A stretch of DNA of 57,418 nucleotides, from positions 3,653 through 61,070 of the forward strand of contig MGGC01000040.1 of the NCBI GenBank assembly GCA_001792215.1, read 5' to 3'. The first letter of the stretch is position 1, and each line of letters starts with the position of its first letter. Made by a program: the position numbers and the translations under genes. The notes beneath the pieces are model-generated. The model saw only the letters and a list, made by a program, of their open reading frames with translations. It had not been told where the DNA came from and did no database searches. Below are positions 40,071-57,300 of this stretch, piece after piece. Source of the stretch: Candidatus Woesebacteria bacterium RIFCSPHIGHO2_01_FULL_38_10 (GTDB lineage Bacteria; Patescibacteriota; Microgenomatia; UBA8517).

Positions 40071-40868
40071 TCACTTTTGCAAAACCAAAACCAGGTGAGG
40101 ACCCCAAAGGGTGAATGGAAAGATTCCCTTTTCAGCCAAAAATCTAAACAATCTTTGCTGAATTTTAACATCTTTCTTTTCTTCTTCCCAACACACCGAC
40201 CAGACTTTAACAGAAAGTCCAAAGGATTTTGAAAAAGGAATAAGAGTTCCAATGTACGGCTCTATGCTGGTGTCATAGTCCGACTCATGCTCTTTTGGAT
40301 TCTCCATCGGCTGGACTTCATTCCAAAGAAGTGAGAATGAATTCGAAAACGGATAAACTAAATCGCCCAATAAACCCTTAAAGAACTTGCTAACCCTTGA
40401 TCCTTTGAAAACCGGCGATGCTCTGTTTGGAGCGCCATAATTCGGCGCTGCAAAAACCAGGTAACCGCCCTTTCTAGTAACTCGAATCGCCTCTCTTATT
40501 ACTTTCTCGGGATTTGTAAGATGTTCCAGCACAAATGCGCAATAAACTAAATCGAAACTGTCATCTTCAAAAGGCAGGTTCTCAAGATTGGCTCTTTTGA
40601 AGGTTAAATTAGAATAAGTTCTTCTGGCTAAACCGATCGCAGTCCTGCTGATGTCAACCCCCACCCCCTTTTTCCCTTTAGCAATAATCGAAAGCCTTGT
40701 TCCTTCCCCGCAGCCCAAGTCAAGAATGCAGGAAGAATTTTCTGCAAGCTTTTCCAGCACTTTGATTCCGAAGTGACTCTTGTTTAAGCTCCCTTCCTTG
40801 GCAAGCTGATAATAATATTTACTTTTCCATACCTTCAAAGCTTTGCCCTTAATATCCTGTCCTCTCAT
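40071..40868 (-). CDS. Class I SAM-dependent methyltransferase
   Basis: 265 aa. ILDLGCGEGT, FDLVYCAFVLEHL, KGGYLVF. Confidence 0.8.
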   Translation of the reverse strand: MRGQDIKGKALKVWKSKYYYQLAKEGSLNKSHFGIKVLEKLAENSSCILDLGCGEGTRLSIIAKGKKGVGVDISRTAIGLARRTYSNLTFKRANLENLPFEDDSFDLVYCAFVLEHLTNPEKVIREAIRVTRKGGYLVFAAPNYGAPNRASPVFKGSRVSKFFKGLLGDLVYPFSNSFSLLWNEVQPMENPKEHESDYDTSIEPYIGTLIPFSKSFGLSVKVWSVCWEEEKKDVKIQQRLFRFLAEKGIFPFTLWGPHLVLVLQK

Positions 40869-41730
40869 ATTTAAAGATCCTCCTTTTTATTAACTTTAAC
40901 GGCCACTCTATGTAAGACCTTAGTTTATATTCTTTCGACCTTCTTTCCCAAGGCGAAGGGACAATATCGGGTTTTGGCCTGAAAAAGACCTCCGGATAGT
41001 AAAAATCATGTGGAAAGTTTATTCCCAAATCGAACTTAAACTTGACATCTCTTTTTGGTACATAAAGATCGTTTTGTCGGGTAGAAGAGCGTATAACATT
41101 TGTGAAATGCAAATATCCCAACCCCAGATGTTTTCTTTCTTTTGCTGGTCGATTTTGTATCAAGACTCCGCCCTTATCATAAAGGCCAAGTTGACCGTGT
41201 GGTTTGTCAAAATGAAGGCCTTTAATTTTTCTATTTACTGCTCTTATATTAAGATGTCCTCTAAGACCATCTATTTCGTACATTCCAGCAACTTCTTCCT
41301 GGTAATGGTAGATGTCTCCAATAATATTGGAATACCTATTTACTATCGATTCGACTCTGTTCCCATTTTTACGGATAGTCTCTACCAGTAATGATATTGC
41401 AGAATCCCACCAAACCTCGTCTCCATCAACTATCACAAACCAATCAGCTTCTGTTTTAGCAAGCATCTCTTGCCTAGCTTTAGTGAAAGATCTAATATCC
41501 ACCTCACCAAATTCTCGAAAATCGATCTTATCAGGATACAATTTTCTAATCTCATTAATTATTTGAACAGTATTATCTGTGCTGCCTGTATCCCAAATTA
41601 AAATCCGATCTAGATGTTCAATAACACTCATTACTGAAAACCAGATATAGCGCTCTTCGTTTTTAACTAAGGTATTTGCCCAAATTTTCATCTGTCGATA
41701 GCCTTTTAGTTTGATTTTGTTTTTGTACAA
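40849..41730 (-). CDS. GT2-like glycosyltransferase
   Basis: 293 aa. LVKNEERYI...IWDTGSTDNT...IVDGDEVW. The start is probably the ATG at 41691 (MKIWANT). Confidence 0.65.
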   Translation of the reverse strand: MYKNKIKLKGYRQMKIWANTLVKNEERYIWFSVMSVIEHLDRILIWDTGSTDNTVQIINEIRKLYPDKIDFREFGEVDIRSFTKARQEMLAKTEADWFVIVDGDEVWWDSAISLLVETIRKNGNRVESIVNRYSNIIGDIYHYQEEVAGMYEIDGLRGHLNIRAVNRKIKGLHFDKPHGQLGLYDKGGVLIQNRPAKERKHLGLGYLHFTNVIRSSTRQNDLYVPKRDVKFKFDLGINFPHDFYYPEVFFRPKPDIVPSPWERRSKEYKLRSYIEWPLKLIKRRIFKYERTGY

Positions 41731-43016
41731 ATCTTTCTCAACACCCAGATTAATGGAACTATAAAATTAAATATCTGTCCCAGCAAAACTGTTATTGCAG
41801 CACCGGTTGTGCCATTCACTGAAATCAGATTCCAGCCTAAAAATCCCACTAAAATCATATTAGTGATTGACAGATAAAAGAAGAACTTAGGATAGGAAAA
41901 ATAATAAATGATGGCCATGTGAACCGGAACAGAAATAAGAAGGACAAGCATCCCAAAAAACAAAATTAGAAAGGGAGTCGTTGATCCCAGATAGGCTTTT
42001 CCATAAATAAGGGGTAAAAGTTGTGTGGCAAAGGGGACAAAGAATAGAGCGAGTATTGCTATTCCTAAAACCATAATCTGAACCTTTTTCATATATTTGA
42101 CTAGCTCGCCGATTGTTGACAATCCTGCCATCCTTGGTGCAACAACAGTTGAAATTGCAGCTACGCACTGGGGCACTATTTGAACTAATTGAACTGCCGC
42201 AGAGTAGATACCAACATCAGTTGCGCTTAAAAGCCGGGCAGATATAAAAGTATCCAGTCTTGCGCCAATTGCGCTAGCAATTGAAAAAAGAGCCACCCAT
42301 TTGTTATAAGCGAAAAAGTCTTTGACAATACTTCCTTCGTTTTTCACCTTCCAAAATTTAACGGAAAGTAAATTTAATCCAACCAAAAATCCCATAAATG
42401 GCACAAGTGTATAAACTAATAGGGCATTTTTTAATCCTAAAATTCCCAGACTTATAAATAGAAAAACGATGAAAAGTCTCAAAAAATTAGTTCCAATTTG
42501 GATCAGACTCCATTGGATAAATTTTTGAAAAGCCTGCAAACTTGAAATTACAAAACTGAAAAGAAGATACGAACCTACCCCGACAAACGCAATCTTTAAA
42601 GGTGCTGCCAAACCCTCTTCTGAAAAAAGCAAATCTGCCAGATCTGAACTTCCCAAAAAACCAAAAATTAAGACTAGACAGATAACTCCTAACTTAACTT
42701 TTAACCCTAATTTCAGAAACCGTTCTGCCTTTTCTAAATTCTGACTTGCGTACTTACCCACAAATTTCACAATGCCTGTATTCGTACCCAAATCGCCGAT
42801 GTCTCCGACCAAAGTAAGAGTTGTAATTGCCACTATCATTAATCCAAAGTCCGAAGGCCCCAAATAACGCGCAGTAACAATATAAAAGATTGCGCCCAAT
42901 CCTCCATTTATCAAAGTTCCTACTGAAGTGATTACCGACTGTCTAAAAGTCGCTGTTGCAAAAACACCTGAAGCAAAACTATATGCCGGAATTCTTGTAA
43001 ATGCTTTCTTTATCAC
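41706..43016 (-). CDS. wzx: Wzx-like oligosaccharide flippase (MOP superfamily polysaccharide biosynthesis protein)
   Basis: 436 aa, ~12-14 TM segments. N-terminal TARYLGPSDFG motif. Confidence 0.7.
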   Translation of the reverse strand: MIKKAFTRIPAYSFASGVFATATFRQSVITSVGTLINGGLGAIFYIVTARYLGPSDFGLMIVAITTLTLVGDIGDLGTNTGIVKFVGKYASQNLEKAERFLKLGLKVKLGVICLVLIFGFLGSSDLADLLFSEEGLAAPLKIAFVGVGSYLLFSFVISSLQAFQKFIQWSLIQIGTNFLRLFIVFLFISLGILGLKNALLVYTLVPFMGFLVGLNLLSVKFWKVKNEGSIVKDFFAYNKWVALFSIASAIGARLDTFISARLLSATDVGIYSAAVQLVQIVPQCVAAISTVVAPRMAGLSTIGELVKYMKKVQIMVLGIAILALFFVPFATQLLPLIYGKAYLGSTTPFLILFFGMLVLLISVPVHMAIIYYFSYPKFFFYLSITNMILVGFLGWNLISVNGTTGAAITVLLGQIFNFIVPLIWVLRKICTKTKSN

Positions 43017-43366: not shown

Positions 43367-43444
43367 CTCCTCTCAAAACAGTATAGCAATCTCGTCTAAC
43401 TCACACTTATACAAAATATAGTCGTGTAGTTCAATTATAAAGTA

Positions 43445-46330
43445 TTATAAACTATGCTTCGTGATATTTTTCCTTTGGAGCAAAACTAGCAAGGTAAAAA
43501 TTGAAACTAAAGTTACCGCACTTATAACAAGTCCGGGGAGGACGTATCTTTGGGGCTCGAAGTAGATATCATACTCCCCATCTTCTTCAATCACGAATCC
43601 GTTAATCAGGGAATAAAGGGGGAATGAATTATGAACTTGCTTTTCATTCGTTCCAGCCCCGGAGAGTCTATTCAGCCATCCCGGAGGCGTTTTTTCTGAA
43701 TCGGTCTTAGCTATCATCCATAACGGGTCATAGGTTTCAGAAAAAGCAAGTGTTACTGGATTAGTTACGCCCTTCACTTCAACTTTATAATGTGTCGAGT
43801 TAAGCTTTTCATGTCGGACAGTCGGACCTTTTTCAATCTCAGAAAATAGTACAATCTTATTTTCATCAGTCAGATCATCCCATCTTACAATGTCGCTTTG
43901 ACTGATCAGCTCATCAAAATGGGAAAGCTCGTTCCTGCTAACAACAGCTAACGCGTTTACGATGTTTATATTACCTTCAGTTTTAATAATTATTTCATCA
44001 TCTTGCTTGACCTTCAGATTCCCGCCTGTCAAATTTCCCACCTCAAACCATCTAAACTCAGCCTTTTCATACTCAAAATACTGATCAGAAATTTTGCCAT
44101 ATCCTGTTAGTTTTATAGCAACTTTCTCGGGATCTTCGACCAACGTATCAATTTCCCCAATCTTTTTATCGCTCTGCCAAAATTCAACCTTTCCAGCCTG
44201 TTTACTTCTAATAACTCGAGCAAGAAGAATGTCACCTTCCGAAAATTGAAAAGTGGAAATTGAAAATTCGTAATTTCCCTCAGAAATTGCCCATCCACCT
44301 CCGTAATCAAAATCCTGATTATCGATTCCATATTTTGTTTGCAAAAAATCTCTAAACCAGACAAAATCAGACGCATCCCTTTTCCACCAATTCGGGGATC
44401 CTGAGCTCGTCGAAGGACTGTAATTCAGAAATGATGCAGGAAATATATACCTACTTTTATCAATAAAACTAGCAATTAAATCAACTTCAGTCTTTTCATA
44501 AAGTAAATATGTACAAGGAAAATCCTTGTGCGCTGCACTCATGCCAGGATATTCCTCCAGAAAAATCAGTGAATTTTCCGATAGTTCAAAATCAGGTAGT
44601 TTAACTAATTCTTTATAAATATCATCTGACCCAACAATACAAAAGCTTTCTTTCGAGAGAAAAAAATGATCTTTGGACTTTTTGGTTTTTAAAAGCGCTA
44701 AAGGCGGGTCAAATATTCTCTCCTCAACCCAAGGTAAATCGGTAAGTTGATTTAAAAAAGTGTAGTAATAGTCAATACTGTCTTGCTTTAGCTCTTCTTT
44801 CCTTACATCAGGGTAGGGATAAGCAATATAGCCGACGGCCGCTATATCCAATAGTTCTCCCATGAAAGTTGACTCGCGCAAATAGTTGTGCTGTTCATAA
44901 CTACCGACCCTGGCAACAGCAAATGGTCTTTTTTCGGAAATCAAATACCCCAACGCCTGGGGATGAAGGGGACTGGAAAAAGCCAAGGGGGTGCTTCCGG
45001 GAATCCATAAAACTCTTCCGAAACCTATGTCCCTTTCAAGAAAATTATTAACTTCTTTATGCTCTTTCTGATAGACAGGATTTGAAAACAGACCAGTCAT
45101 TTTACCGGTGTAGACAGGGAAGATGAGAAGTAGGAGATAAAAGGTAAAAAATAAAGGGATTGTCTTAAACGACCAACGACTAATAACCAATGACCAATTA
45201 AACTTCTTGGTCAACTCATCAACAGCAACACCGATGAGAAATGAATAAGAAAGAACTATTAAAAAGAAAAACTTTGTTGGATCCCTAAAAAGTAGAAATC
45301 CTGGAACATTATCAATAATCCAGGGATACAAAGAAGCGAAGGGGGGGTTAGCCCCTTTTGCTAAAAACAAAGATAGTATCGCCACAACCAAGTAAAATCC
45401 GATATTTTTATCTTTCTTTCTTAGAATGGGGGCAGAAAACGCAAATACAGGAAGCAAAACAAAAATCGGACTTACATGTTCTAACTTTCCGAATACGTTT
45501 TTGTACCAATGCGGCTGAAATAAATAAAGTGCGTGGCTTAAACTGGTATAAGTTTGAAAATCGCCCGATAGCGATTTCAGGTAACTTTCAGGGATAACAC
45601 CAACTCCTGTTTTTAATGACGGATATATCCAGTAAAAATGAAAACCCGTAAGAAAAATAAAAGATAGAACTGCAATAAAAAAAGCATTTTTAATAAGGAT
45701 AAATTTCTTCTCTTTTTTTAAAACTAAGAAACCGTAAAAAAAATAGATTACTGCAAAAAAAACAAAAAGAAAGACTATTCTAAGGTCAAATATCGAAAGG
45801 GTTATTAAAAAAAAAGTAAACTTCAAAACACTACCAAGCGAATAATCGTTTATTAATTTAATGAATAAAACTGAAACCATTGGAAAAACAGCGTAAGCTA
45901 AAGAAATAAATAACTGCCCCCCATCAATAAGGAGAAGTACGTAAGTATTAAGTAAGAAGACAAAACTACCAACGGTTATCCCATACTTTCTAACACCAAA
46001 GTAACTCAAAAACTTAGCTATCGAATAAGAAGAAAGTATAATAAACGGAATAATGAAAACTATCCTGGAAAGAAAAGAAAAACTAAGACCAACTTTTGTC
46101 AAAAACGCCAGAAGAAAAATTATTGGCCAGGCCCAAGCCGTAGAGACTACGTTATACCCCATCCCGTCAGCTCCGAGAGTATTTCTCCAGAGTTGAGGAA
46201 AATTAAAAGCCGAAATTAACTCCTGAGGATACCAATATATAAAATCAGTTGCGACTTTGGTACCCGGATTCCAAAGCATCCAAAATACAATCAATAAAAG
46301 AAGGACTGTAACTTTTATACTTCTATTCAT
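43445..46330 (-). CDS. Giant polytopic membrane protein with large extracytoplasmic domain and C-terminal TM anchor (GT-C-like, YfhO/DUF3367-type architecture)
   Basis: 961 aa. ~14 N-terminal hydrophobic segments, ~500-aa soluble region, terminal TM LVISAVTLVSIFTLLVLL. Shares NVPGFLLFRDPTKFFFLIVLSYSFLIG with RVPGFSILRTPFYKFGVIVWFSYSFLIA in the 54314.. protein. Confidence 0.8.
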   Translation of the reverse strand: MNRSIKVTVLLLLIVFWMLWNPGTKVATDFIYWYPQELISAFNFPQLWRNTLGADGMGYNVVSTAWAWPIIFLLAFLTKVGLSFSFLSRIVFIIPFIILSSYSIAKFLSYFGVRKYGITVGSFVFLLNTYVLLLIDGGQLFISLAYAVFPMVSVLFIKLINDYSLGSVLKFTFFLITLSIFDLRIVFLFVFFAVIYFFYGFLVLKKEKKFILIKNAFFIAVLSFIFLTGFHFYWIYPSLKTGVGVIPESYLKSLSGDFQTYTSLSHALYLFQPHWYKNVFGKLEHVSPIFVLLPVFAFSAPILRKKDKNIGFYLVVAILSLFLAKGANPPFASLYPWIIDNVPGFLLFRDPTKFFFLIVLSYSFLIGVAVDELTKKFNWSLVISRWSFKTIPLFFTFYLLLLIFPVYTGKMTGLFSNPVYQKEHKEVNNFLERDIGFGRVLWIPGSTPLAFSSPLHPQALGYLISEKRPFAVARVGSYEQHNYLRESTFMGELLDIAAVGYIAYPYPDVRKEELKQDSIDYYYTFLNQLTDLPWVEERIFDPPLALLKTKKSKDHFFLSKESFCIVGSDDIYKELVKLPDFELSENSLIFLEEYPGMSAAHKDFPCTYLLYEKTEVDLIASFIDKSRYIFPASFLNYSPSTSSGSPNWWKRDASDFVWFRDFLQTKYGIDNQDFDYGGGWAISEGNYEFSISTFQFSEGDILLARVIRSKQAGKVEFWQSDKKIGEIDTLVEDPEKVAIKLTGYGKISDQYFEYEKAEFRWFEVGNLTGGNLKVKQDDEIIIKTEGNINIVNALAVVSRNELSHFDELISQSDIVRWDDLTDENKIVLFSEIEKGPTVRHEKLNSTHYKVEVKGVTNPVTLAFSETYDPLWMIAKTDSEKTPPGWLNRLSGAGTNEKQVHNSFPLYSLINGFVIEEDGEYDIYFEPQRYVLPGLVISAVTLVSIFTLLVLLQRKNITKHSL

Positions 46331-46494
46331 CGAAGTTTATGGATATATATCCCTGTACCTACTAAAATCAACAAAAAACAAATAGTGGCCAATTCAGAAG
46401 AAAAACCCCGGTGTCCCAAAACGGAAGAGAGAGAAGATAATATAACTACCATAATTCCTAAACCAAAAAAAATATTGATATAAATATCTTTCAT
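46327..46494 (-). CDS. Unannotated 55-aa two-TM micro-protein, translationally coupled to the 961-aa gene
   Basis: Hand translation gives MKDIYINIFFGLGIMVVILSSLSSVLGHRGFSSELATICFLLILVGTGIYIHKLR. Its TGA (46329..46327) overlaps the ATG (46330..46328) of the next gene as ATGA. It is below the 60-aa track cutoff. Confidence 0.5.
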   Translation of the reverse strand: MKDIYINIFFGLGIMVVILSSLSSVLGHRGFSSELATICFLLILVGTGIYIHKLR

Positions 46495-46556
46495 GAAATT
46501 TATGCTTTACATGACATTATTTTAGCAAAACTACAATGAGTTTTTCTTGAAAGAAA

Positions 46557-47483
46557 TTATTTTCGGGCAACGGCTTTATGCATGGGCCAAAAAAGAGGGC
46601 TTTTGACACATAGGTAGGTAAATAACCTTTTACTCCAGGAAGGTAGAGACTCCAGGACTAGATAAGTATCAAATCTAGTGATATCTGTCTTCTTAAAACC
46701 TGCAACTTTATGAAGATTTTTCAAAGTTGATGCTAAAAAAGAAAGTTCATAACCGAAAGACATGTGTTTACCCTTTAATAAATTAAGATTAACAAATTCA
46801 AAAATTTGTCTGACTACCGGAATGTTTGGTATGTTCCCCCACCTGAATCTGTAAAGAGTTCCCAAGTTAAGGCAGGGCACTGTATTAAATGAAACTCCAC
46901 CTTTTTTTAAAATTCTATAAATTTCCGTTAAAACAACCTTAGTATTCTTAAAGTGTTCAATAGTGCCCCCCCCGTAAACAAAGTCAAAAGAATCGTTTGC
47001 AAACGGCATCTGGGTTATATCACCACAGACAAATAAAGTGTTTTTAATTCCAAATCTTTTGGCAAACTTTTGAGCAATCTTAAGCGCGGAGGTAGAGAAA
47101 TCAATTCCGATAATCATGCTGCCCTTCTTTCCGTAATAAAGTCCCAAATACCCCGGACCGCAGCCAATTTCTAAATAAACGGTGCCCTTTCCTATTTTTT
47201 TTGAGGCGTCAATCTGTTCGACAATTTTGGGTTGATGATTTAATTGATAATCATCCATATCTTTTAAGTATTCCTTAGTTTTTAACTTCTTTTCATATAT
47301 GGCATCCCACTTCTCCATACTCAATTTCACATCATCAGTTATTTCAGGTATTAATACAGGAAAGCCATACTTAAACCCGTACTCCTCGCCACATTTGCCA
47401 CATATGAGTCTCCTTTTTTCTTGTCGAAGGACGAATTTACAAACCGGACAGACCAATATCCTTAATTGACTTTTTGACAGCAT
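46557..47483 (-). CDS. Trm112-like zinc-ribbon + class I SAM methyltransferase fusion
   Basis: 308 aa. N-terminus LRILVCPVCKFVLRQEKRRLICGKCGEEYGFKYGFPVLIPE, then YLEIGCGPGY and FDFVYGGGTIEHF. Confidence 0.8.
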   Translation of the reverse strand: MLSKSQLRILVCPVCKFVLRQEKRRLICGKCGEEYGFKYGFPVLIPEITDDVKLSMEKWDAIYEKKLKTKEYLKDMDDYQLNHQPKIVEQIDASKKIGKGTVYLEIGCGPGYLGLYYGKKGSMIIGIDFSTSALKIAQKFAKRFGIKNTLFVCGDITQMPFANDSFDFVYGGGTIEHFKNTKVVLTEIYRILKKGGVSFNTVPCLNLGTLYRFRWGNIPNIPVVRQIFEFVNLNLLKGKHMSFGYELSFLASTLKNLHKVAGFKKTDITRFDTYLVLESLPSWSKRLFTYLCVKSPLFWPMHKAVARK

Positions 47484-47516
47484 ATCTGACTACTCCAGCA
47501 CAAAACACATAATATC

Positions 47517-47596
47517 ACAAGTTTCGTAGACACCTCTAAATCATCTCCGAGGAGTCTCTTCGGGCCACCATCCGAGGTGGTAAGTACAAAACTTGT
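47517..47596 (+). mobile_element. MITE-like repeat, 80-nt copy R3
   Basis: ACAAGTTTC...atctccgaggagtctcttcgggccaccatccgaggtgg...AAAACTTGT. The core matches R1/R4. It lies between the 779-aa gene stop and the methyltransferase start. Confidence 0.7.
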
Positions 47597-47612
47597 AATT
47601 TGGTAAATTTGT

Positions 47613-49952
47613 TTAACTCGATTCAAACAAATCTGGATGTGTATTTCCTACAAAGTTTCTTCTGTAAAGACCATAAGTTAAAGACAATGCAATTAAAAAA
47701 AGAATCGACCCGGCATAAAAACTCCTGGGAACATATTGCATGACAATAACATGATCGCCTGGCCGATCAATAACAACGCCTTTTACAAGACTGTCTGCCA
47801 TGTAACTGTTCACCTTATTCCCGTTTAAAAAAACTTTCCAATTTCTGTCAAATGTATTGCTGTAAATAAAAAATCCCTTATGATCGGTTCTAAAAATGGA
47901 TTTCATAAAACCCGGTTCTTCAACAAATTCAGAAAACTCAAAACCTGACTTTTTTATATCTCTTATACGATAATCATTTGAGTCTTTAATCACTTTACCA
48001 CCATTTGCTTTGTAGGTCGTTATTAGATCGTCAACATACGTCTGATTACGAATTAGGGGGTCATTGAGAATCAACACATCAAACATCTTTAATTCTTCCA
48101 ATGTATAGTCATCAAGATACGGGCTTTGTCCACTGAATACCGACTGTTCCATCGGAATAAATTCCTCGCTATAGATAATCTTCCTAGCCAGATTAGAGTT
48201 AAATTTGTCTTTCTCTTGTTTTCCGACAATTAAGGACCCATTAGTAACGAAGTAAGGACGATCTCGAGTTTTTAACATCTCAAAAACAAAAACTGGATTT
48301 TCGTTTACGCTTCCGCCCTCGTTTATCACTCTAACTTTCGACACAAACTTGGGGTTATTATAAGTTTCCTGCTCTTTCTCCCAGATAAATAAGTACTTTG
48401 TGTTAAGAATCGAGAATGTTTTGAAATTATTTTCCCAAGGCGTACCTTTACTAATAGTGGAATAGAAATAAGGCGACGTTGGTCTGTAATATGGGCCAAT
48501 TGAATCAAGATTATCCCTATTTACCGACTCATAAGTGTAAAAGTTAAGCCCGGGTGATTCATACCCTAAAATCGCCCTATAAGGATCACTATTGTTGGAT
48601 TTGGACGCTGAGAACAACGTCACGTTCGAACTTGAATATTCTGTGAACTCAGTTTCTTCAATAAAAAACTGCGCTTGGTCAATAAATATACGAAGTGGGG
48701 GAATAATTAGTACAAAAAAAACAATCGTCAATATATTTAAATATCTTATTTTTCTCATCCAGTTGACAAAAAAATTAAGGCCTAAACAAAAAAGTAAGGG
48801 TAAAACGAAATAGACGTTTATTAAGAAACGGATCGTATAATGTGCAGACTTGAAAAAAGGCACAAGGTAATAAAAGAGAGAATAGAAATCAATTGGAATT
48901 GAAGAGCCAAAAGATGCCAACAGTGAAACCAAAAAAACAATAAAAATGGGAAAAGTAATCTTTAGTCTTTTTCGATCAAACAAAGACGCCAAAGAAAAAA
49001 GATAAAGACTAACATGGAAACCTTTAAATATGTTATTGATCTTTCTAGTTGACTCTATCTTAAGAAAAAATTCCTGTGTCAGTTTACTTATTATCGTTTG
49101 ATAATATTTGGGAGTTACATCGGCCTCGGCTGACTCAAGGCTAAGATCTTTTCTTAGTGAATCACTTAAAGATTCTTGTACTGGAAGTAGTTTGGGAGCA
49201 GAAAAAATAAATGCAAAGATTATAAAAGTAACGAACAACTTACTCAGTCCCAACAAATAATTAAGGTTTCTTGTTTTAGAATTGTTAATCAAATTAAACG
49301 CCAAATAAGATAAAAAAAATATTCCTAATGCAACTGCCGCATAAGTTGTATTATATAAAGCCCCACCATGAATCAACATTGAAAAAACAAATCCCAAAAA
49401 CGCTGTGAATATGTACTTTCTTGTTATTAACATTTCTATAAAAAGTAATAAAATTAGTGGAAACCAAGCAATCATAATCAAGTCGGAACGAAAACCGTTT
49501 TGAAATATTAAACTTGTCTCAGTGTTATACAGATAAAAAAAAGAACCAACAGTCGCTACGATTATATTCACTTTTAGTAATTTAGTTAAAAGAAGAAAGA
49601 AAAATGCTCCCAGAAAATAGTGTATAAAAAAGGAGATTCGAGTCGCATAAAGTTGATCCCTAAAAGGGAAATTTATTAAGTAGGTCAAAGGGTAGGTTTG
49701 TGGATATGAAGGATTGCCTATTGCAGAGCTTCCCGACCCAAGTTTATTGTCCCATAACAATATTTTATGTTTTTCTATAAAATATTGTCTTATTTTTGCA
49801 ATAGGATATGTTTCAAACACAATCGACTCACCAATTGTGTATCGAGTATCATCTGTTATCAGCCTTGAATATATAGCCGAAGTCACTATTAGAGCAATAG
49901 AAGCATAAACAAAGTATATCCATAAGTATTTACTAAATTTAAGCAGTTTCAT
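47613..49952 (-). CDS. Giant polytopic membrane protein (YfhO-like architecture), possibly distantly related to the 961- and >1026-aa proteins
   Basis: 779 aa. ~13 hydrophobic segments, ~330-aa soluble domain, C-terminal TM GSILFLIALSLTYGLY. ATGA overlap with the upstream methyltransferase gene. Confidence 0.75.
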   Translation of the reverse strand: MKLLKFSKYLWIYFVYASIALIVTSAIYSRLITDDTRYTIGESIVFETYPIAKIRQYFIEKHKILLWDNKLGSGSSAIGNPSYPQTYPLTYLINFPFRDQLYATRISFFIHYFLGAFFFLLLTKLLKVNIIVATVGSFFYLYNTETSLIFQNGFRSDLIMIAWFPLILLLFIEMLITRKYIFTAFLGFVFSMLIHGGALYNTTYAAVALGIFFLSYLAFNLINNSKTRNLNYLLGLSKLFVTFIIFAFIFSAPKLLPVQESLSDSLRKDLSLESAEADVTPKYYQTIISKLTQEFFLKIESTRKINNIFKGFHVSLYLFSLASLFDRKRLKITFPIFIVFLVSLLASFGSSIPIDFYSLFYYLVPFFKSAHYTIRFLINVYFVLPLLFCLGLNFFVNWMRKIRYLNILTIVFFVLIIPPLRIFIDQAQFFIEETEFTEYSSSNVTLFSASKSNNSDPYRAILGYESPGLNFYTYESVNRDNLDSIGPYYRPTSPYFYSTISKGTPWENNFKTFSILNTKYLFIWEKEQETYNNPKFVSKVRVINEGGSVNENPVFVFEMLKTRDRPYFVTNGSLIVGKQEKDKFNSNLARKIIYSEEFIPMEQSVFSGQSPYLDDYTLEELKMFDVLILNDPLIRNQTYVDDLITTYKANGGKVIKDSNDYRIRDIKKSGFEFSEFVEEPGFMKSIFRTDHKGFFIYSNTFDRNWKVFLNGNKVNSYMADSLVKGVVIDRPGDHVIVMQYVPRSFYAGSILFLIALSLTYGLYRRNFVGNTHPDLFESS

Positions 49953-50716
49953 TTATTTGCTCTTTTATATAATGTCAAACTAGACCCGCATAAAACGACT
50001 CTAATTACGGGAATCTTCTCAACAAAAGCTTCTGATCGTTTCAATAATATTGCAATCCATTTGGGGCAGAAATAAGGAACCGTACCAAAAACATACTGCT
50101 CCACTACCTGATAACCTTCTTCTGAAAACCAATTATTTAAAGTTTTCGTCGAATAGGACTTTTCTTCATGCTGTCTGTGATAAGCAGATGTTTTTTCAAT
50201 TACTTTCAGTATCGGGTTATAGCCATTCGGTTCTAAGACTAATATGTATTCAAAATATCTGCTCAAATTTTTTATTGCTTTTTGAGGGTAATACAAGTGA
50301 TGCAACACTCCCTTCACCAACGCAATATTATAATTACCCTCCTTCTTTAAAAAATCGAGCTCATATATATTATCGACTCTAAATTTAATTAACTTCATAT
50401 ATTTCTTAGGAACCATTTTCCTGGCCCTGATAACAGCTTGTCTTGCGGGATCAACGCCGACAATTCGCTTAAGTTTCGATTGATTAAATATCTCTATCGT
50501 GTATTTCCCATCTCCGCAACCTATATCAATTACACTAATTTTTCCACCAAAGTTTCTCCCTATGCATTCTATAACCTCTTTAGACTGTCTTTGGTTTGCA
50601 ATAAAAGCTGGATAGAGATCTTTATTGGTATAAATATAACTCCCGGTCAAAGTAATATCTTTGTTATAAAAGTCAATATTTTTCTCTGTCCCAAACTTAG
50701 ATTTACTTTTGGCCAT
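49949..50716 (-). CDS. Class I SAM-dependent methyltransferase
   Basis: 255 aa. VIDIGCGDGKYT, VGVDPA, GVLHHL. Confidence 0.8.
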   Translation of the reverse strand: MAKSKSKFGTEKNIDFYNKDITLTGSYIYTNKDLYPAFIANQRQSKEVIECIGRNFGGKISVIDIGCGDGKYTIEIFNQSKLKRIVGVDPARQAVIRARKMVPKKYMKLIKFRVDNIYELDFLKKEGNYNIALVKGVLHHLYYPQKAIKNLSRYFEYILVLEPNGYNPILKVIEKTSAYHRQHEEKSYSTKTLNNWFSEEGYQVVEQYVFGTVPYFCPKWIAILLKRSEAFVEKIPVIRVVLCGSSLTLYKRANK

Positions 50717-50762
50717 ATTAAGGAAATCGACATTCTACCCAAATTCTAAAATCTTACCAGTC

Positions 50763-50953
50763 ACAAGTTTCGCAGACAGGCTTGCCTGCGCAAGACAAGC
50801 TTAAACCACCTTCGAGATGTGCGAAGCCAGGTACCATACAGTACTTGGCGAAGTACTCCTCGGAGGTGGATGGATTTACCAACTGACATTATCTCGGAGG
50901 AGTCCCTTCGGGCCACCATCTGAGATGGCTATTAAGGGAAGTGTGAAACTTGT
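50763..50953 (+). mobile_element. MITE-like repeat, 191-nt full-length copy R4
   Basis: Termini ACAAGTTTC (50763..50771) and GAAACTTGT (50945..50953). Flanked by the direct repeat ACCAGT (50756..50761 and 50954..50959). Its internal modules are shared with R1, R2 and R3. Confidence 0.8.
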
Positions 50954-50979
50954 ACCAGTGTCTAATTTAGAATTCTTTT

Positions 50980-52005
50980 TCAATCCTGGTAATTTTCCAA
51001 GCCCCCTCCGACATAACGATAATAGGATAGGCGGGGGTTTTTGAAAATATATTGATTAACTAGACTACCCGGCACTTTTCTTATTTCTGATTGAATACGT
51101 TTTCTTTCTCTTAAGGTGTTATTTAAATTTAGTAAATTTGCTCCTATTGCATGAAGAACAGCAAACCCTTTCTCATAATTACCTTTTGCGACTTCCACAA
51201 AAGTTACTCCAATAAGGGTAAATATATGGATAGGCAAAAGCCACAAAAGAGTTGGTAATTCAAAATTTTTTATAAATGACCTGATTCTGTTGCGGTGACT
51301 TTTAAAAACGGTATCAATATTGTCCCTTTTTTTGTAAGTCGCACCCACAAAATGCTCCACTACCGCTCTAGGTGTATACCAACACTCATAACCTGAAAGC
51401 CACACTCTATGACAAAAATCACTCTCTTCAAAATATGCAAACATATAATCATCCAAAAATCCTGTCTTTTCAATAACTTTTCGACGGATAAGTATACAAG
51501 CCCCCTTACCCGAATAAACTTTCAAGTCAGAATTATACTTTGGATCGTCTGCGTCTTTATAAAGTCCGAAATAATACGGAATGCCAGTTTTAGTCAGATA
51601 TGCGCCAACGTTATCAAGTTTTTTATTATCAGACATAAAGACAAGCTTTGGTTGTACGACTCCCGCCTTTTTGTGGGTTTTGAAAAAATCGACAAGCTTG
51701 TCGATTACTTCTTTATCAAACTTTGTATCTGCATTCAAAAGTAAAATATATTCTCCCTGTACTTTTTTATAAGCCAAGTTGTTACCTTGCGCAAAACCTA
51801 AATTTTCTTTACTTTCAATGAGAGTAAAATTTTTTTTCCTGGTATATTTCTTTAGGGTTTCAAGTGAAGAGTCAGAGGAGGCATTATCGAGAACTATAAC
51901 TTCATAGTTTTTATAAGTCTGGTAAAATATTGATTTAAAACAATCATCAAGAAATTCTTGCTGATTCCAATTAACAATCAATATTGAAACCAATCCTTTT
52001 TTCAT
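50980..52005 (-). CDS. GT2 glycosyltransferase
   Basis: 341 aa. VSILIVNWN, VLDNASSDSS, LNADT, FEESDFC. Confidence 0.85.
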   Translation of the reverse strand: MKKGLVSILIVNWNQQEFLDDCFKSIFYQTYKNYEVIVLDNASSDSSLETLKKYTRKKNFTLIESKENLGFAQGNNLAYKKVQGEYILLLNADTKFDKEVIDKLVDFFKTHKKAGVVQPKLVFMSDNKKLDNVGAYLTKTGIPYYFGLYKDADDPKYNSDLKVYSGKGACILIRRKVIEKTGFLDDYMFAYFEESDFCHRVWLSGYECWYTPRAVVEHFVGATYKKRDNIDTVFKSHRNRIRSFIKNFELPTLLWLLPIHIFTLIGVTFVEVAKGNYEKGFAVLHAIGANLLNLNNTLRERKRIQSEIRKVPGSLVNQYIFKNPRLSYYRYVGGGLENYQD

Positions 52006-53129
52006 TTTAGGAAAGGAAGCAGATTTTCTCTATACATCAAGTTCCAATCAAACTTTTCCACATACTCTTTAGCGTTTTTGCTTAAGGTTTTTATTAGATT
52101 CTTGTTTTTTGAAAACTTCTGCATGGCTTCAAATAGCTGACGCTTACTATTGTAAACATAACCCAACTTATATTTCCGGACGTCTCCAGAAATCTCCGGA
52201 ACGCTAGATATAATAACCGGCATTCCGCAAGCAAGATATTCTTTAACTTTAAGAGGGCTTGCGTACTTAGTCCAACCTTCAGACTCGTTATATGAAGCAA
52301 TACCAACCCCACCGTTCTTTACTAAAAATCTTAGGGCCTTGTCGTGTTCCAATCTTCCTAGAAGATATACCCTATTTTCAAGATTGTTTTCTTTAACAAA
52401 AGTTCTAATTTTTTCTTCCTTGCTTCCTGTTCCCAAAAATGCAAGTTTCACTCTCCTGAAACTTTTAGCTATTTTGCTAAATACATGCAAAAGCTCAATC
52501 ACACCATGGGTTTCAGATAAAGTTCCAAGATAAACAAAGTCGAAGATGATTCTTTTTTTAAGTCTAGGAATAAGACCTAAGTCAACTCCGTTTGGTATCA
52601 CCAACGATTTTCGTTTGTTGAGGCCTAATGAGATTCTTCTTTCTTCTGCTCTTTTAGTATTACTGATAACTAAATCGGAAATTCTTAAGGCTACCAGTTC
52701 AACCATTCTATATACGATATTCATAATAGAATTTTTGAATCTTTCATCAGCATAGTCTGATCCGTAATAAATAACGCGTTTTATCTTCCAACCCTTAAAA
52801 AAAATAGCTGGAAAAGTATCAAAGTTATCAAGGCCAATATAGTTATCAACTTTCCCGCAAGTTGTAGCAATTTCATATATGGTGATCAGTGCATTTCTAA
52901 ATAATCGTACAACCGTTTCTCCCTTTTTCTTGTAATTTTTCACTGTTTTAGATTTTTTCATATTCGAATACTGCTCTACAACCGTTTCTTCCAACTTAGT
53001 TCCAAGCATCGGGTGAAAGACAACTTTTATATATGTGTCAGGAATTGCTACCAAAAAATCCCTAAGATGCTGTCCCGGACCCACAATTTCGCTTACATGT
53101 CCAACCAACAAAGTCTTTTTTGTGTTCAT
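52002..53129 (-). CDS. GT4 glycosyltransferase
   Basis: 375 aa. C-terminal ASPLKVKEYLACGMPVIIS. ATGA overlaps on both sides. Confidence 0.75.
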   Translation of the reverse strand: MNTKKTLLVGHVSEIVGPGQHLRDFLVAIPDTYIKVVFHPMLGTKLEETVVEQYSNMKKSKTVKNYKKKGETVVRLFRNALITIYEIATTCGKVDNYIGLDNFDTFPAIFFKGWKIKRVIYYGSDYADERFKNSIMNIVYRMVELVALRISDLVISNTKRAEERRISLGLNKRKSLVIPNGVDLGLIPRLKKRIIFDFVYLGTLSETHGVIELLHVFSKIAKSFRRVKLAFLGTGSKEEKIRTFVKENNLENRVYLLGRLEHDKALRFLVKNGGVGIASYNESEGWTKYASPLKVKEYLACGMPVIISSVPEISGDVRKYKLGYVYNSKRQLFEAMQKFSKNKNLIKTLSKNAKEYVEKFDWNLMYRENLLPFLK

Positions 53130-53980
53130 AGGCCTAAAATTCCTTTCAATCTCGCCATCGCTAAACCGAAAACCACAGCCATAAGTTCAACAGATTTCAT
53201 AATAATAAGGCCCATGCCCAATATTGGATACTTTACAAACTTATTAACATTCCTAAAGTAAGCAGGTCTAAAAAGTGTATTCGCTTGTTTGAATGCGTGG
53301 TCTCTATGCTTGGAGATAAAAACACCTACTGTTTTTCCGTAAAAATACTTTTTTTTCATTGTTTTAAGTAAACTTAACTTTCCCTCATTATGATAGACAG
53401 GAGATTTGATCCTCCCGATTTTATAGCCGGCCTCTTTTACTTTTAGATGAATGTCTTTGTCCTCAGATGCAACCATAGTTTTATCGTGACCACCCACGTC
53501 CCAATAAGCTTTCTTCGAAAAAAACCTCGCCGATTCCATCAGATCGTCTCCAATATACAATGACCTCTCAAAAGCTTTAACCTTTGCCCAAAAACCCTCC
53601 CCATATGAAACTTCAGAAATAATAAGGGCGTCATAACCTTTTTTCATTTTTTCAACACACTCTCCCAAAACCTTGGGGTGTAAAGACATGTCCGCATCAA
53701 GATGGTAAAGATCATCTCCTTTTGCAACTTTCGCTCCTTCCCTTCGACCTTGAGCCATCATTTTGTTTTTTTTGATATAGTTTATTTCTAATTTTTTGGA
53801 ATAGTCCTTAATAACTTTTGGTGTGTCATCAGAAGTCGATAAGTCATCATTAATAATAACTTCAAAGTTTTTGTAGGTTTGGAGAGTCAAAGACTTAAAA
53901 AACAGTTTCAAATGCTCTCCTGCATTTTTAGTAGGAATTATCAATGAAATTAAAATGGCTTTCATAAGATGATCTTTCAA
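53126..53980 (-). CDS. GT2 glycosyltransferase
   Basis: 284 aa. ISLIIPTKN, INDDLSTSDDT, HLDADM. Confidence 0.8.
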   Translation of the reverse strand: MKDHLMKAILISLIIPTKNAGEHLKLFFKSLTLQTYKNFEVIINDDLSTSDDTPKVIKDYSKKLEINYIKKNKMMAQGRREGAKVAKGDDLYHLDADMSLHPKVLGECVEKMKKGYDALIISEVSYGEGFWAKVKAFERSLYIGDDLMESARFFSKKAYWDVGGHDKTMVASEDKDIHLKVKEAGYKIGRIKSPVYHNEGKLSLLKTMKKKYFYGKTVGVFISKHRDHAFKQANTLFRPAYFRNVNKFVKYPILGMGLIIMKSVELMAVVFGLAMARLKGILGL

Positions 53981-54357
53981 AAACTATCTTTTTCAGAAAG
54001 AATAAACGTAATAACAGCAGTTAACAATAATACGTACAATAAACTCCCCAAGAATTCATAACTCTGGGAACCCAGAAAGGTAAAAAGCGGCATTGTAATA
54101 ATAAAAGCAAGAATCACCTTTGTCTGCAAAAAGTGATTAATTCTAAAAAAAAATATACCTACCATCCATACAAGCAATATCTTTACGAAAAAATTTTGCA
54201 CAAGAAGATTTACATAGGGAAGTTCTGTAACAATATTAAATATAAAAAAGAGAACAATAAGTTGCATGAGGATTTCTAACGATCTTTTCCTTATAACTCT
54301 TTTGATATTTTTCTCAATTTTTGGCAGCATAGGATTTTCTTCTAAAGTAAAGAACAA
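53977..54357 (-). CDS. Small polytopic membrane protein (about 100-126 aa, start uncertain)
   Basis: 3-4 hydrophobic segments. Lies between the giant membrane protein gene and a GT2 gene, with overlapping junctions. Confidence 0.45.
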   Translation of the reverse strand: MFFTLEENPMLPKIEKNIKRVIRKRSLEILMQLIVLFFIFNIVTELPYVNLLVQNFFVKILLVWMVGIFFFRINHFLQTKVILAFIITMPLFTFLGSQSYEFLGSLLYVLLLTAVITFILSEKDSF

Positions 54358-57300
54358 AAATTACAATTGGCAGAATTACTAAACTTATTCCGCTTGCTAG
54401 CGCCCCTCTGTAAAAAAGAATCTGAGGTTCATATTCAACAATAAAGTTTGTCTCTTTTCCTTCCAACACCCACGAATTGTTATATCCATTATTAAGAAAG
54501 TGGCTTAATTCAGATGTATCGCGTTTACGATTAATCAAGTCAAGAAGATTTACCTCGGGATTTAATCCATATTCTTCTGTGTTATAGCTACTACCTAAAA
54601 TAAACTTCTCGTCAAACACTGCCTCCAGGTCTTTTATATCAACTGGTCTCAACTTCCAACCGTCATCAAACCGTTGACCAAAATTAAGAAAAGATGTATT
54701 TGTGTTCCCTTTTATCGATACAAGGTATTTTGTTTGGTTTATTCGAATAAACTTTATTTCTTGTGACAAGGGAGTTTTTCTCTCACTTGCAGAAATAAAA
54801 AACACATCTGGTCTGCTTTTTCCAATAACTTCTAATCCATCGACCTTTACCAGAGAATTTTCAATACTATTCGAATTAACACAAAACTTAAGTTTAAACT
54901 TTTGTGTATATTTATCAGGTTGAAATTCTGCCTCAAACCTGCTCCATGAAGAGTCTCTTTTTAAAAGGGAATTGACACGGTAGGTCGGGCGTTTGTTTAA
55001 GTTTATGGTATCTACGTCTTGTTCAACCAGAAAACGTATTATTGGTTCTCCAATTTCAGTTCGATAAAGAAATGACACTTTATATTTTATATCTGAACTC
55101 AAATCATTCATTTCAAAATCCCGACAGGTGAGACTACTTTGGGAAGAAAGCAGATCAAACTGAGACGGAACGGAATGTTGAAGTAAAACCGTTTCTTCAA
55201 AAGGAATCTTAATTTTGTGGGTCCCTTTTTCAAACCAAATTTTGCCAAAACTCATCCACTCATCGGCTGTTTTTGTTACCTTTGTTGCAACTTCACCTTG
55301 ATCTATGGTAATAACTTGTGAATCAGGATAGGAAGAAACAAAATTTTTGTTGAAATAAAGCATAATTTGATATTCGGCGGGAAACGGAATGTTAACATCA
55401 AAAGAATGTTTATCTATAATTTCCTCTTTTTCCCTAGGAATTGATAGACTGGCAAGTCTCCACTGTAAATCCAAAAACTTTGACTTAAGATCTTGACTGT
55501 CAGTCGACTGCTCCCAGGTGATAAGATTTCTGTCATTATATTTGTAGTAGGATGAGACCCTGTTAATGTAAAAGTTTTGTCGTTGTTGATCAGGAATAGA
55601 ATAAATTAGAGCAGCTATTTTAGCAAAATTTTCATAAATATCTTCAAGAATAATTATAATAAGAGCAGGTTCCTTTTTCTGTTTTAGTATTCCTTGAATT
55701 AGCACCTGTTTTTTTAGTACATTTCCCAGCAGGTAGTCTATATGTTGCTCGGGGTTGGGAAACATAACCTCTTTTCTTTCTTCCCGAATAGCCTCTAGAT
55801 AATACAAGAATCGGGAATTGGGCAAAATGCGCATGCGGGGCGTTTCAACAACTGTCTGAATTGGAAAACATAAAGTACAAATACCTTTAACAACATTGTT
55901 AGTGACATACTTTTGCGGTAATTCGTACTTAAGCATAGATTCTGTTATAAAAAATGAGTCCAGAAGTTCTATCTGGGGATTACCCACAATTTTGTTAAAA
56001 TCGGCCATAGAAATATCAAGAAAGCTATTTTGGGACGACAGATAAAAAAGTGGGTAAGGTTCTTGTTCTTTAAATTTGTAGACAATCCATTTTTCAAACT
56101 CCTTAATTTTTTCAAATTTTGAATTGTCCTCTATCGAATTTATAATTTTTTGTGGACTATACGACCCATTCGCGGAAGCCGAAAAATCTTTCCTGACTAA
56201 AATATAGTGAATCCCTAAATATTTGGCGATATCAAAGTTCTTGTTAAATCCCAAATCATCATAGAGCGTTCTTACCAGCTCTTGTTCACTTCCTTTTAAA
56301 TAGGCGTCGTTTGCAACTACCGATTTGTTAGTAAGAATTGTAGGGATAGTAGATAAGCTAAAATATCTCCAATCATAGATTTCATATCTTGTATTCGGAT
56401 CAATATCGGGGGCAAGAAGAACCCTTTTACTTGAACCAGAAGTCTCATCAATCCACTTTTTAAAATCAAACAAATAGTTTGGGACTTGAAGCATTGTGGA
56501 GTAACTTTTTGACCAATGAAAAAATCCTCCAGTAAAGTAAGGATAATTATACAAAGACCATATAGCTATAAAGAGCATAAACCCTGACAGAGCTAAAAAA
56601 CGTTGAATCTTAAATATAATACGAACTTTTTTTAAACTATTGACTATATGAAAGAGTGTATAAGCAATGAGAAAGGAATAGGAAAACCATACAATAACTC
56701 CGAACTTATAAAATGGAGTTCGGAGGATTGAAAAGCCAGGGACACGGAGCAATAGCAAATCATAGATAATACCACTTGGCCTATGACTACCCGCAGCAAA
56801 AAATATTCCAACTAAACAAAGAAGAGTAAAAAAAACAACGTAAACTTTGTCTTTGTTTGAAGAAGTCTTTCGCAAGAACAAAAAAGACGAGAATGCCAAA
56901 AACGGCCAAAGAAAACTTAAAAATACAAATAAAGGGTTATAGAGAAAAGTCTTAGAGTACGGATGTTCCAAGTTATCATACCAATCAGGTATCCCTTGCA
57001 ATCTAAAAAGATTAGTAAAACTAGTGTTTTTGCTAATCTCCCGACTCCAGGAAATCGCCCCCTCTACACCCCCTGCCGCTCCAACCCGGGAGGCAAAGCT
57101 CTGAGAGAAATAAAGGAAAAGAGGCACAATCCAATAAAGATTTAGAAAAATAAATGATATTAATGCTGCCAGAGAAAAAATCAGAGCTCGCACAATTTTT
57201 CTAAATATATTCTTTCTATTTGCCCGTAGCAGAGTAAAATAGGAAACTGCAAAACCAGCCACAATTCCCAAACCAGCGTAAAAAGGTATACCTGGACCTG

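Follow-up and report, generated by a model that had tools for sequence, protein, structure and literature searches.

Why do two S-adenosylmethionine (SAM) methyltransferase genes, each followed downstream by the gene of a giant membrane protein, lie in series between short repeats in Candidatus Woesebacteria bacterium RIFCSPHIGHO2_01_FULL_38_10? The stretch of DNA concerned was analyzed over its entire 57,418 nt (hereafter designated the window), to which all open reading frames (ORFs), repeats, and coordinates refer, and the genes of the cluster are on the minus strand unless otherwise stated. A preliminary description of positions 43445–50953 had taken the arrangement to be the same two-part unit present twice in tandem. 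Its gene coordinates, Zn-ribbon methyltransferase, ATGA overlap, 55-aa ORF, and repeats were all confirmed in the sequence: in the direction of transcription, with every ORF on the minus strand, the 191-nt repeat R4 (50763..50953) is followed by a soluble class I SAM methyltransferase (MT255; 49949..50716), a 779-aa protein (47613..49952), the 79-nt repeat R3 (47517..47595), a class I SAM methyltransferase bearing a Zn-ribbon at its N-terminus (MT308; 46557..47483), a 55-aa micro-protein forming a two-transmembrane (2-TM) hairpin (46327..46494), and a 961-aa protein (43445..46330). We found that the conserved two-part logic of this locus is a GT-C giant with a hairpin micro-protein, not a methyltransferase with a giant, and the region is probably the variable central part of a conserved operon with which a Microgenomates bacterium (candidate phyla radiation (CPR)/Patescibacteria) makes an envelope glycopolymer.

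AlphaFold (AF2) models of the 961-aa and 779-aa proteins, built on family alignments, were compared with the PDB by Foldseek. The 961-aa model (pLDDT 90, pTM 0.88) consists of a membrane bundle (residues 1–410), a beta-rich domain (420–924) resembling CBM6/CBM35-type sandwiches, and a C-terminal TM segment (925–960); its top match was AftD (6W98; E 2e-11, probability 1.0), followed by STT3, AftA, and PglB. The 779-aa model (pLDDT 87, pTM 0.90) matched STT3, AftD, AglB, PglB, DPY19, ArnT, and AftA with probability 1.0. In both models, a bundle of membrane helices at the N-terminus leads into a large beta-rich domain, and the chain closes with one TM helix and the basic residues after it; a single C-terminal TM helix was seen in all three giants of the cluster and in the relatives checked. 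As modelled, the two proteins belong to the GT-C superfamily at the fold level; the preliminary description was therefore right in calling the giants GT-C-like, with the large beta-rich domain lying between the membrane bundle and the C-terminal anchor helix. The third giant (54314..57418; C-terminal part of at least 1,034 aa) was assigned through a weak match to Pfam GT-C_AftD (PF11847; E 0.003, 16 bits, cut-off 26) and through its orthologues in the related loci L002 and L003, which are 1,100–1,200 aa long and carry PF11847. The 1026-aa ORF of this giant is still open where the window ends (57418), and thus the gene is truncated and the cluster runs on past the edge instead of starting with this giant, as had been supposed.

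At the level of sequence families, neither the 961-aa nor the 779-aa protein matched PF11847 in the Pfam scan. The 961-aa protein has no Pfam family, and no Pfam catalytic family was found on any of its 69 homologues, the best of which (at most 48% identity) come from Woesebacteria and Daviesbacteria and are all unannotated; it matched NCBIfam MmpA (NF053599; E 3e-12) over residues 290–452 only, with 45.8 bits against a cut-off of 210. The 779-aa protein, which has one relative only above 40% identity, gave a partial match to Pfam PTPS_related (32.4 bits, residues 607–666), and its relatives matched YfhO (PF09586) in 14 and PTPS_related in 13 of 32 cases. Searches of PDB sequences with the three giants and with the 961-family profile returned nothing useful, and for this reason catalytic residues could not be mapped onto AftD. 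D29 is nearly invariant in the 961 family; it stands just after the first TM helix, in what is predicted to be the first outer loop, and is accompanied by the motifs DGGQ and FRDPTKF. The close 779 subfamily has two invariant acidic residues, E42 and D68, in its predicted first outer loop, where the wider family keeps only W67 and G74. No WWDYG-type motif and no match to an oligosaccharyltransferase family were found in the cluster, and the context of Wzx, DedA/VTT, and GT2 proteins is consistent with GT-C enzymes using a polyprenyl-phosphate sugar donor at the outer face.

The MmpA match raises the alternative that the giants are non-catalytic scaffolds or transport factors of GT-C fold, organizing or exporting envelope lipids or glycolipids. 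MmpA, which among sequence families the 961-aa protein matches best, is described as having no recognizable catalytic domains and as being needed for trehalose-lipid transport (PMC8698533), and the lack of a Pfam catalytic family on the 69 homologues would agree with such a role. Nevertheless, the likeness to the active AftD extends over the full length and includes the CBM-like outer domains missing from MmpA (a 543-position model), D29 is nearly invariant and accompanied by the two motifs, the surrounding genes are overwhelmingly glycosyltransferases together with a Wzx flippase, and matches to YfhO, a family of proven GT-C enzymes (PMC8035078), occur among the relatives of the 779-aa protein. 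We therefore consider non-catalytic giants quite unlikely.

The setting of the giants was compared with that in other genomes. A scan of species-representative genomes detected 163 loci encoding 961-family proteins, of which 79 were gene-called and labelled, and the neighbor statistics were calculated for 78 non-redundant loci, which are phylogenetically non-independent. A recurrent gene order was observed, starting with a methyltransferase and/or a GT2, an AftD-like giant (~1,100–1,200 aa), and a ~110-aa 4-TM protein, often continuing with a second giant and its own ~110-aa protein, then a ~55-aa 2-TM protein and the 961-family giant, and ending with a Wzx flippase, a GT2, one or two methyltransferases, and GT2, GT4, GT2, and PMT_2 genes; the flippase was directly downstream of the 961-family gene in 34/52 loci. 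A small non-methyltransferase protein (up to 180 aa) stood directly downstream of 65 of the 81 giants of at least 1,000 aa (80%), compared with 57 of 914 other genes (6%; odds ratio (OR) 61, p = 4e-52). Among the 4-TM proteins found directly downstream of giants, 66/73 fell into one similarity network, which includes the ~117–126-aa protein of the window (53977..54357; four hydrophobic segments), the small partner of the AftD-like giant. The 55-aa micro-protein is likewise real, as the preliminary description had held: a conserved 2-TM ORF directly upstream of the 961-family gene was found in 37 related loci, with a conserved NH(P/S)GFA...G...Y signature. Moreover, its best phmmer matches occurred in 14 loci, and it is homologous to the C-terminal hairpin of the ~110-aa 4-TM partner family.

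The small hairpin partner, whether 4-TM or 2-TM, is of one family and is probably a subunit or a donor-lipid handler of its AftD-superfamily giant. An identity with GtrA/GtcA was rejected for the 4-TM partner, for which neither GtrA nor any consistent Pfam match appeared even at E values up to 1, nor any PDB match. The idea of a split AftD C-terminal bundle was pursued by looking for fusions of giant and small protein; none was found, apart from an internal, compositionally doubtful match in L034. A more far-reaching possibility, which we advance only tentatively and at low confidence, is that the AftD-superfamily GT-C enzymes of Microgenomates are obligate heteromers with hairpin micro-proteins (4-TM after the ~1,150-aa giants and the 2-TM 55-aa protein before the 961 family), the partners replacing the five-helix C-terminal bundle of actinobacterial AftD (1 + 4) or handing the polyprenyl-phosphate donor to the active site, and that in some lineages a cytoplasmic methyltransferase docks on this complex, much as proposed for MtrP with MmpA/TmaT, with methylation licensing export and transfer. 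In mycobacteria, GT-C enzymes have recently been predicted to have small accessory subunits in the membrane (bioRxiv 10.64898/2026.07.15.738315).

Is the methyltransferase, then, a second constant partner? MT255 (Pfam Methyltransf_31/23/11) and MT308 (Methyltransf_11, E 7e-22) are both class I SAM methyltransferases, and the methyltransferases of the window are without TM segments. For the CxxC...CxxC region at the N-terminus of MT308, Trm112p ranked first in Pfam with a sub-threshold score (19 bits versus a cut-off of 22; E 1e-3). When all giants were counted, a methyltransferase was directly upstream in 27/124 cases as against 124/871 for other genes (OR 1.7, p = 0.03), and when only the first giant in a series was taken, in 27/68 (40%) as against 124/871 (14%; OR 4.0, p = 9e-7); for the 961 family it was 1/52 loci. 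Clustering of 200 methyltransferases from the related loci gave a ~228-aa subfamily with 18/50 members directly upstream of a giant, and a Zn-ribbon subfamily (~312 aa, range ~285–320 aa; N-terminal CxxC...CxxC) in which 9/16 members immediately precede AftD-like giants, the genes often overlapping by 4 nt, whereas two conserved downstream subfamilies, which include MT232 and MT265 of the window, had 0/61. The same upstream subfamilies were equally often followed by a GT2. The Zn-ribbon subfamily, whose loci include L004, L008, L045, L053, L058, and L074, is the strongest candidate for a dedicated methyltransferase–giant partnership; the MT308 of the window lies outside it.

For the 779 family, a metagenome scan gave 15 pattern matches and no confirmed relative, and the neighborhoods of eight relatives were looked up individually. 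In each of the four closest (33–42% identity), a same-strand methyltransferase gene immediately precedes that of the relative, overlapping it by 4 nt in three; the fifth has a divergently transcribed methyltransferase, the sixth a GT2 upstream, and two distant ones neither. MT255 was considered as an orthologue of the conserved methyltransferase partner of these relatives and rejected by the clustering, being unrelated beyond the fold to MT298 of L005 and L088. Its own family (~248 aa) gave more than 1,250 matches at 42–52% identity across phyla, a 46% homologue sits in another sugar-modification cluster with no giant beside it, and both MT255 and MT308 are orphans among the 200 methyltransferases. 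ATGA overlaps were found at the MT255/779, 55-aa/961, GT2b/GT4, and GT4/GT2a junctions. Since adjoining glycosyltransferase genes overlap alike, the overlaps reflect operon-wide packing and are not special to the methyltransferase–giant pair, and as a sign of special coupling they were rejected.

These results bear on the alternative that the pairing is a functional unit resembling MtrP and MmpA, in which the cytoplasmic methyltransferase is a dedicated partner docking on the cytoplasmic side of the AftD-like protein and licensing the lipid-linked intermediate for export or transfer, as has been proposed for MtrP–MmpA–TmaT in Corynebacterineae. It is favored by the MmpA match of the 961-aa protein (E 3e-12), as the AftD-N-like MmpA shares a locus and a functional link with MtrP, a putative methyltransferase (PMC8698533), by the concentration of upstream methyltransferases mainly in two subfamilies (18/50 and 9/16 versus 0/61), by the enrichment before first-in-series giants, by the four closest relatives of the 779-aa protein, and by the prediction that MtrP needs a Trm112-like Zn-ribbon activator (bioRxiv 10.64898/2026.07.15.738315), a Trm112-like Zn-ribbon being fused in MT308. 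The lack of orthology between MT255 and MT298, the huge cross-phylum family of MT255, the single methyltransferase among 52 loci of the 961 family, the equal frequency of GT2 after the same subfamilies, and the occurrence of ATGA overlaps across the operon all oppose it; besides, the enrichment could be inherited synteny in loci that are phylogenetically non-independent, and over all giants it amounts to an OR of 1.7 (p = 0.03). We regard such a docking unit as unlikely, and a dedicated pairing is not supported for the units of the window, given the 961 family and the MT255 homologue without a giant. The preliminary description was borne out in that the adjacency recurs in other genomes, enriched for some giants. 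Its proposal of coupled methylation and transfer also fares poorly: physical coupling is unlikely, because the methyltransferases are without TM segments and need cytoplasmic SAM, whereas the GT-C active sites face outward. We read the adjacency as pathway co-residence with lineage-specific conserved synteny.

In the relatives, the small partner is followed by the 961-family gene directly, sometimes via a micro-ORF, or by other inserts, often an opposite-strand gene of ~500 aa. The corresponding junction of the window instead holds a GT2 of 284 aa (53126..53980; Pfam Glycos_transf_2, E 2e-22; a C-terminal hydrophobic segment), a GT4/GT1-type glycosyltransferase of 375 aa (52002..53129; Glycos_transf_1, E 9e-17), a GT2 of 341 aa (50980..52005; Glycos_transf_2, E 2e-27; a TM-like segment at residues 250–273), the MT255–779 pair, and MT308. 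This content is partly common to L063 only, where a close homologue of the 284-aa GT2 is in the same position, and the arrangement of a methyltransferase, a 783-aa protein, and the 55-aa ORF was found only in L005 among the relatives. The variable junction in relatives, the 779-aa protein with its one relative above 40% identity, and the orphan MT255 and MT308 together indicate that MT255–779, the three glycosyltransferases, and MT308 are a strain- or lineage-specific accessory block, which probably adds an extra methylated side-branch or cap.

Whether the two units could have arisen from one another was judged from their sequences. The 961-aa protein shares 24% identity over 313 aa with the 779-aa protein and 31% over 206 aa with the third giant, while BLASTP found no match between the 779-aa protein and the third giant; MT308 and MT255 share 25% over 85 aa, corresponding to the SAM-binding motif only. 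The closer orthologues of the giants are in other genomes (48% and 41% identity, against 24% to the neighboring unit). The 961 and AftD-like families form distinct groups of orthologues that occur together in ~80 related Microgenomates genomes; the 779-aa protein is a member of yet another, third family. Profile–profile comparison of the 961 and 779 families gave a probability of 99.8% (E 4e-30), and the two are accordingly ancient paralogues in one superfamily rather than recent copies. The two "cassettes" are independent genes of different ages and not a duplication, so that the claim of one unit repeated in tandem does not hold for giants so remote and methyltransferases sharing only the SAM motif.

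The repeats themselves were confirmed as a family. Three occurrences of the repeat core were counted in the window against 0 expected, and nine of the terminal motif ACAAGTTTC against 0.78 expected. R4 has the termini ACAAGTTTC...GAAACTTGTG, those of the family being alike, and R1, R3, and R4 share a common core and ends around a modular internal sequence, with sizes of 44–214 nt; R3 has the same orientation as R4. Perfect 6-bp target-site duplications flank R1 (CTAGAT) and R4 (ACTGGT), and imperfect ones were seen at R3 and the mini copy; R4 is strongly structured (z = -4.7). With their inverted repeats, a target-site duplication, and several non-coding copies, R3 and R4 are true elements resembling miniature inverted-repeat transposable elements (MITEs), landed in intergenic spacers. 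The core was present in none of 85 related loci, and no cognate transposase was seen in the window, no search aimed at one having been made.

According to the remaining alternative, a two-gene methyltransferase–giant cassette was duplicated or shuffled in place through recombination between the flanking MITE-like repeats. R4 and R3 do bracket exactly the MT255–779 pair, both pointing the same way, and in relatives this junction is a hot-spot of variation; to this extent the earlier statement that repeats bound each unit was correct, but no copy was found downstream of the 961-aa gene, leaving the far end of the second unit bare. The units are non-homologous at the methyltransferase level and only remotely alike in their giants, which fall into separate old families. 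Furthermore, R4 has its own perfect target-site duplication, which marks a solo insertion rather than a composite element, and was therefore inserted independently and alone. L005 has its methyltransferase–783-aa pair beside the 55-aa ORF and a giant without such repeats. Nothing indicates that the repeats moved or duplicated genes, and we consider the duplication or shuffling proposed in the preliminary description very improbable.

Some further features of the repeat family were observed. Its palindromic core of ~38 nt, CACCTCGGATGGTGGCCCGAAGGGACTCCTCCGAGGTG, is located at 225–248, 47549–47572, and 50897–50920 and in the loci L093, L095, L098, L100, L103, and L104, and occurs almost identically in 14 metagenome contigs of 35–50% GC. 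In six of these contigs it runs in-frame through long ORFs, which encode a penicillin-binding protein (PBP) transpeptidase (with two organisms sharing the site), a class I aminoacyl-tRNA synthetase, proteins of the Wzy_C type, and a PMT_2 protein; the insertion adds ~13 residues, ...TSDGGPKGLLRGE..., or is read in other frames, and the window's own PBP has no insert at that site. These in-frame cores resemble Rickettsia palindromic elements. The mini element at 29079–29122 (44 nt) is almost identical to 124–167. When the contig L092 (Ga0208375_1084865) was compared with positions 124–337, the left part of R1 and its flank were almost identical and then an R4-type internal module followed, a switch that indicates strain-level recombination or turnover of elements. 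As in MITEs and small palindromic repeats, for which Rickettsia palindromic elements and Correia/REP-type elements are the comparators, the elements are short, non-coding, and hairpin-rich, with inverted termini, 6-bp duplications, several copies, and a modular interior; they differ in that the family is absent from Rfam, and no description of the repeat family or of its in-frame core was found in the literature for CPR bacteria.

From the observed folds, family relationships, conserved gene order, and neighbor statistics, we infer each functional step of the pathway as follows. In the cytoplasm, GT2 and GT4 enzymes would load and extend sugars on a polyprenyl-phosphate carrier, and the soluble SAM methyltransferases would methylate particular sugars on nucleotide-linked or lipid-linked intermediates. 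The Wzx-type flippase, possibly with the small membrane proteins, would then move the lipid-linked sugars across the membrane. Outside, several GT-C-fold enzymes, namely, the giant of AftD type, the 961-aa family, the YfhO-like 779-aa protein, and three PMT_2 proteins, may transfer sugars to the growing polymer, with the CBM-like beta-sandwich domains presumably holding the acceptor, and DedA may recycle the carrier lipid. These steps follow the multi-component scheme of transmembrane glycosylation, described as the combined work of a GT-A enzyme, a flippase, and a GT-C enzyme, AftD and possibly YfhO having extracellular carbohydrate-binding domains (PMC8035078).

Several points weigh against this interpretation of the region. 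The scheme is drawn from sequence and predicted structure for an uncultured organism. The GT2 proteins of the window have one hydrophobic C-terminal segment, so that their role as polyprenyl-phosphate-sugar synthases of the CsbB/GtrB type is putative. D29 and E42/D68, conserved acidic residues of the predicted loop, are only candidate counterparts of GT-C catalytic residues, and MmpA, the sequence family to which the 961-aa protein comes closest, is considered to lack catalytic activity (PMC8698533). The role given to the small partner is a guess, the protein having no similarity to GtrA/GtcA flippases, Pfam, or PDB entries. Finally, the enrichment of methyltransferases before first-in-series giants (OR 4.0) and before the closest relatives of the 779-aa protein (4/4) leaves room for a more specific functional link than pathway co-residence. 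We nonetheless favor the variable middle of an envelope-glycopolymer operon as the probable identity of the region.

The rest of the window agrees with the surface-glycan setting that the preliminary description had proposed and that gene content now bears out. Downstream of the 961-aa gene lie the Wzx-type flippase (41706..43016; Pfam Polysacc_synt, E 2e-27) and a conserved 293-aa GT2 with MT265 (40071..41730; identified by Pfam), whose orthologues of 50–58% identity hold the same position in relatives. The spacer between the 961-aa gene and the flippase (43017–43444; 428 nt) is unusually long, those of relatives being 8–156 nt, and holds a 60-aa ORF (43184–43366) without a family match and no repeat copy. 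Pfam matches elsewhere comprised Mur ligases, MurA, a PBP, three PMT_2 proteins, Wzy_C, a DedA/VTT protein, and an asparagine-synthase-like enzyme, and the window proteins scanned included five GT2, three GT4, four methyltransferases, and a Wzx-type flippase; the whole 57 kb serves envelope biogenesis. A scan of 43000–54500 for sigma-70 promoters and intrinsic terminators gave counts at or below the shuffled expectation, with none at R3 or R4, and no RNA family was found in the window with Rfam at gathering thresholds.

Individual genes of this remainder deserve mention. The only plus-strand gene of the cluster (38122–40038), between MT265 and MT232, encodes an asparagine-synthase-like amidotransferase that might amidate a sugar acid; since many relatives (e.g., L008, L010, L016, L020, and L021) have an opposite-strand gene of ~590–640 aa at this place, it is a conserved feature and not an insertion. 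A DedA/VTT-domain protein is encoded within the glycan operon (34817–35512), which, in the light of recent work on DedA proteins, fits the recycling of a polyprenyl-phosphate carrier. Two peptidoglycan enzyme fusions are unusual, namely, an 846-aa protein joining MurB (FAD_binding_4 and MurB_C) to MurD-like ligase domains (339–2879) and a 775-aa protein joining a Mur ligase to a C-terminal sugar nucleotidyltransferase domain (4322–6649). The otherwise tightly packed operon is interrupted by a 1.25-kb gap (28830–30078) without an ORF of at least 120 aa, the translation of which reads like fragments of a decayed GT4-type gene and makes it a candidate pseudogene; the 44-nt mini element lies inside this gap.

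Envelopes of CPR/Patescibacteria, bacteria that depend on contact with a host surface, are almost unknown biochemically, and no paper linking AftD-like proteins to the CPR was found. The present comparison indicates that Microgenomates keep, beside peptidoglycan genes, a conserved operon of more than 25 kb for an elaborate, probably methylated glycopolymer, with at least six enzymes of GT-C fold. Systems of this kind are known; the novelty lies in the 961 family, in the family of hairpin partners, and in how strictly these are paired with giants of the AftD superfamily. Neither the 961-aa family (163 loci in species-representative genomes, without a Pfam model) nor the small hairpin family is annotated, and both could now receive names and models. 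The pairing of giant and micro-protein offers a definite case in which to test the emerging idea that small membrane subunits work with GT-C enzymes. For annotation, a methyltransferase beside a big membrane protein, even twice, can come from pathway clustering and need not mean a mobile or duplicated cassette.

Contrary to the view that no characterized system has the methyltransferase–giant pairing, precedents exist in MtrP/MmpA/TmaT (PMC8698533) and in AglP of the AglB pathway (PMC3871713), and these can be considered together with the structural counterparts of the giants. AftD (mycobacterial GT-C; 6W98; PF11847) ranked first among the structures matched by the 961-aa protein and was among the top matches for the 779-aa protein, and has the same polytopic N-terminal GT-C bundle, large outer domain with carbohydrate-binding-type beta-sandwiches, and C-terminal membrane anchor. 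The sequence identity is, however, ~10%, and PF11847 is matched by neither protein; the giants end in one C-terminal TM helix instead of five, AftD having 11 + 5 TM helices (PMC8698533), and they are accompanied by a separately encoded 2-TM or 4-TM partner in another phylum and envelope, which has no arabinogalactan. The three-component CsbB–GtcA–YfhO systems (PMC8035078, PMC5836110) likewise combine, in one locus, a GT-C enzyme with GT2s, a flippase, and small multi-pass membrane proteins. In the window, GT2a and GT2b adjoin giants and have one C-terminal hydrophobic segment each, and the association of GT-C, GT2, and flippase genes fits a scheme in which a wall polymer is decorated outside the cytoplasm with sugar from a polyprenyl-phosphate donor. 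Unlike in those systems, the 4-TM partner is not detectably GtrA/GtcA, the flippase is of the Wzx type, and there are at least six GT-C-fold proteins, at least four methyltransferases, and giants of 800–1,150 aa or more with CBM-like domains.

The TmaT–MmpA–MtrP system of Corynebacterineae (PMC8698533; bioRxiv 10.64898/2026.07.15.738315) brings together in one envelope-biogenesis locus, with a functional link, a polytopic protein resembling AftD-N and a soluble protein that is putatively a SAM methyltransferase, and ties a Trm112-like Zn-ribbon to the methyltransferase, separate in mycobacteria and apparently fused in MT308. In contrast to the giants, MmpA is without an outer domain and acts in trehalose-mycolate acetylation and export, and the match of the 961-aa protein to it is far under the family cut-off (46 versus 210 bits); a scan of 30 window proteins, to which ~19 ORFs did not belong, revealed neither a TmaT-type acyltransferase nor an acyltransferase-3 domain. 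In the Agl pathway of Haloferax volcanii (PMC3871713), the SAM methyltransferase AglP helps to build a lipid-linked glycan that is later transferred outside by the GT-C enzyme AglB/STT3. This pathway is archaeal, uses a dolichol carrier and protein Asn as the acceptor, and its AglB is an oligosaccharyltransferase; by analogy, it may still serve as the model for cooperation between a methyltransferase and a GT-C enzyme without physical coupling.

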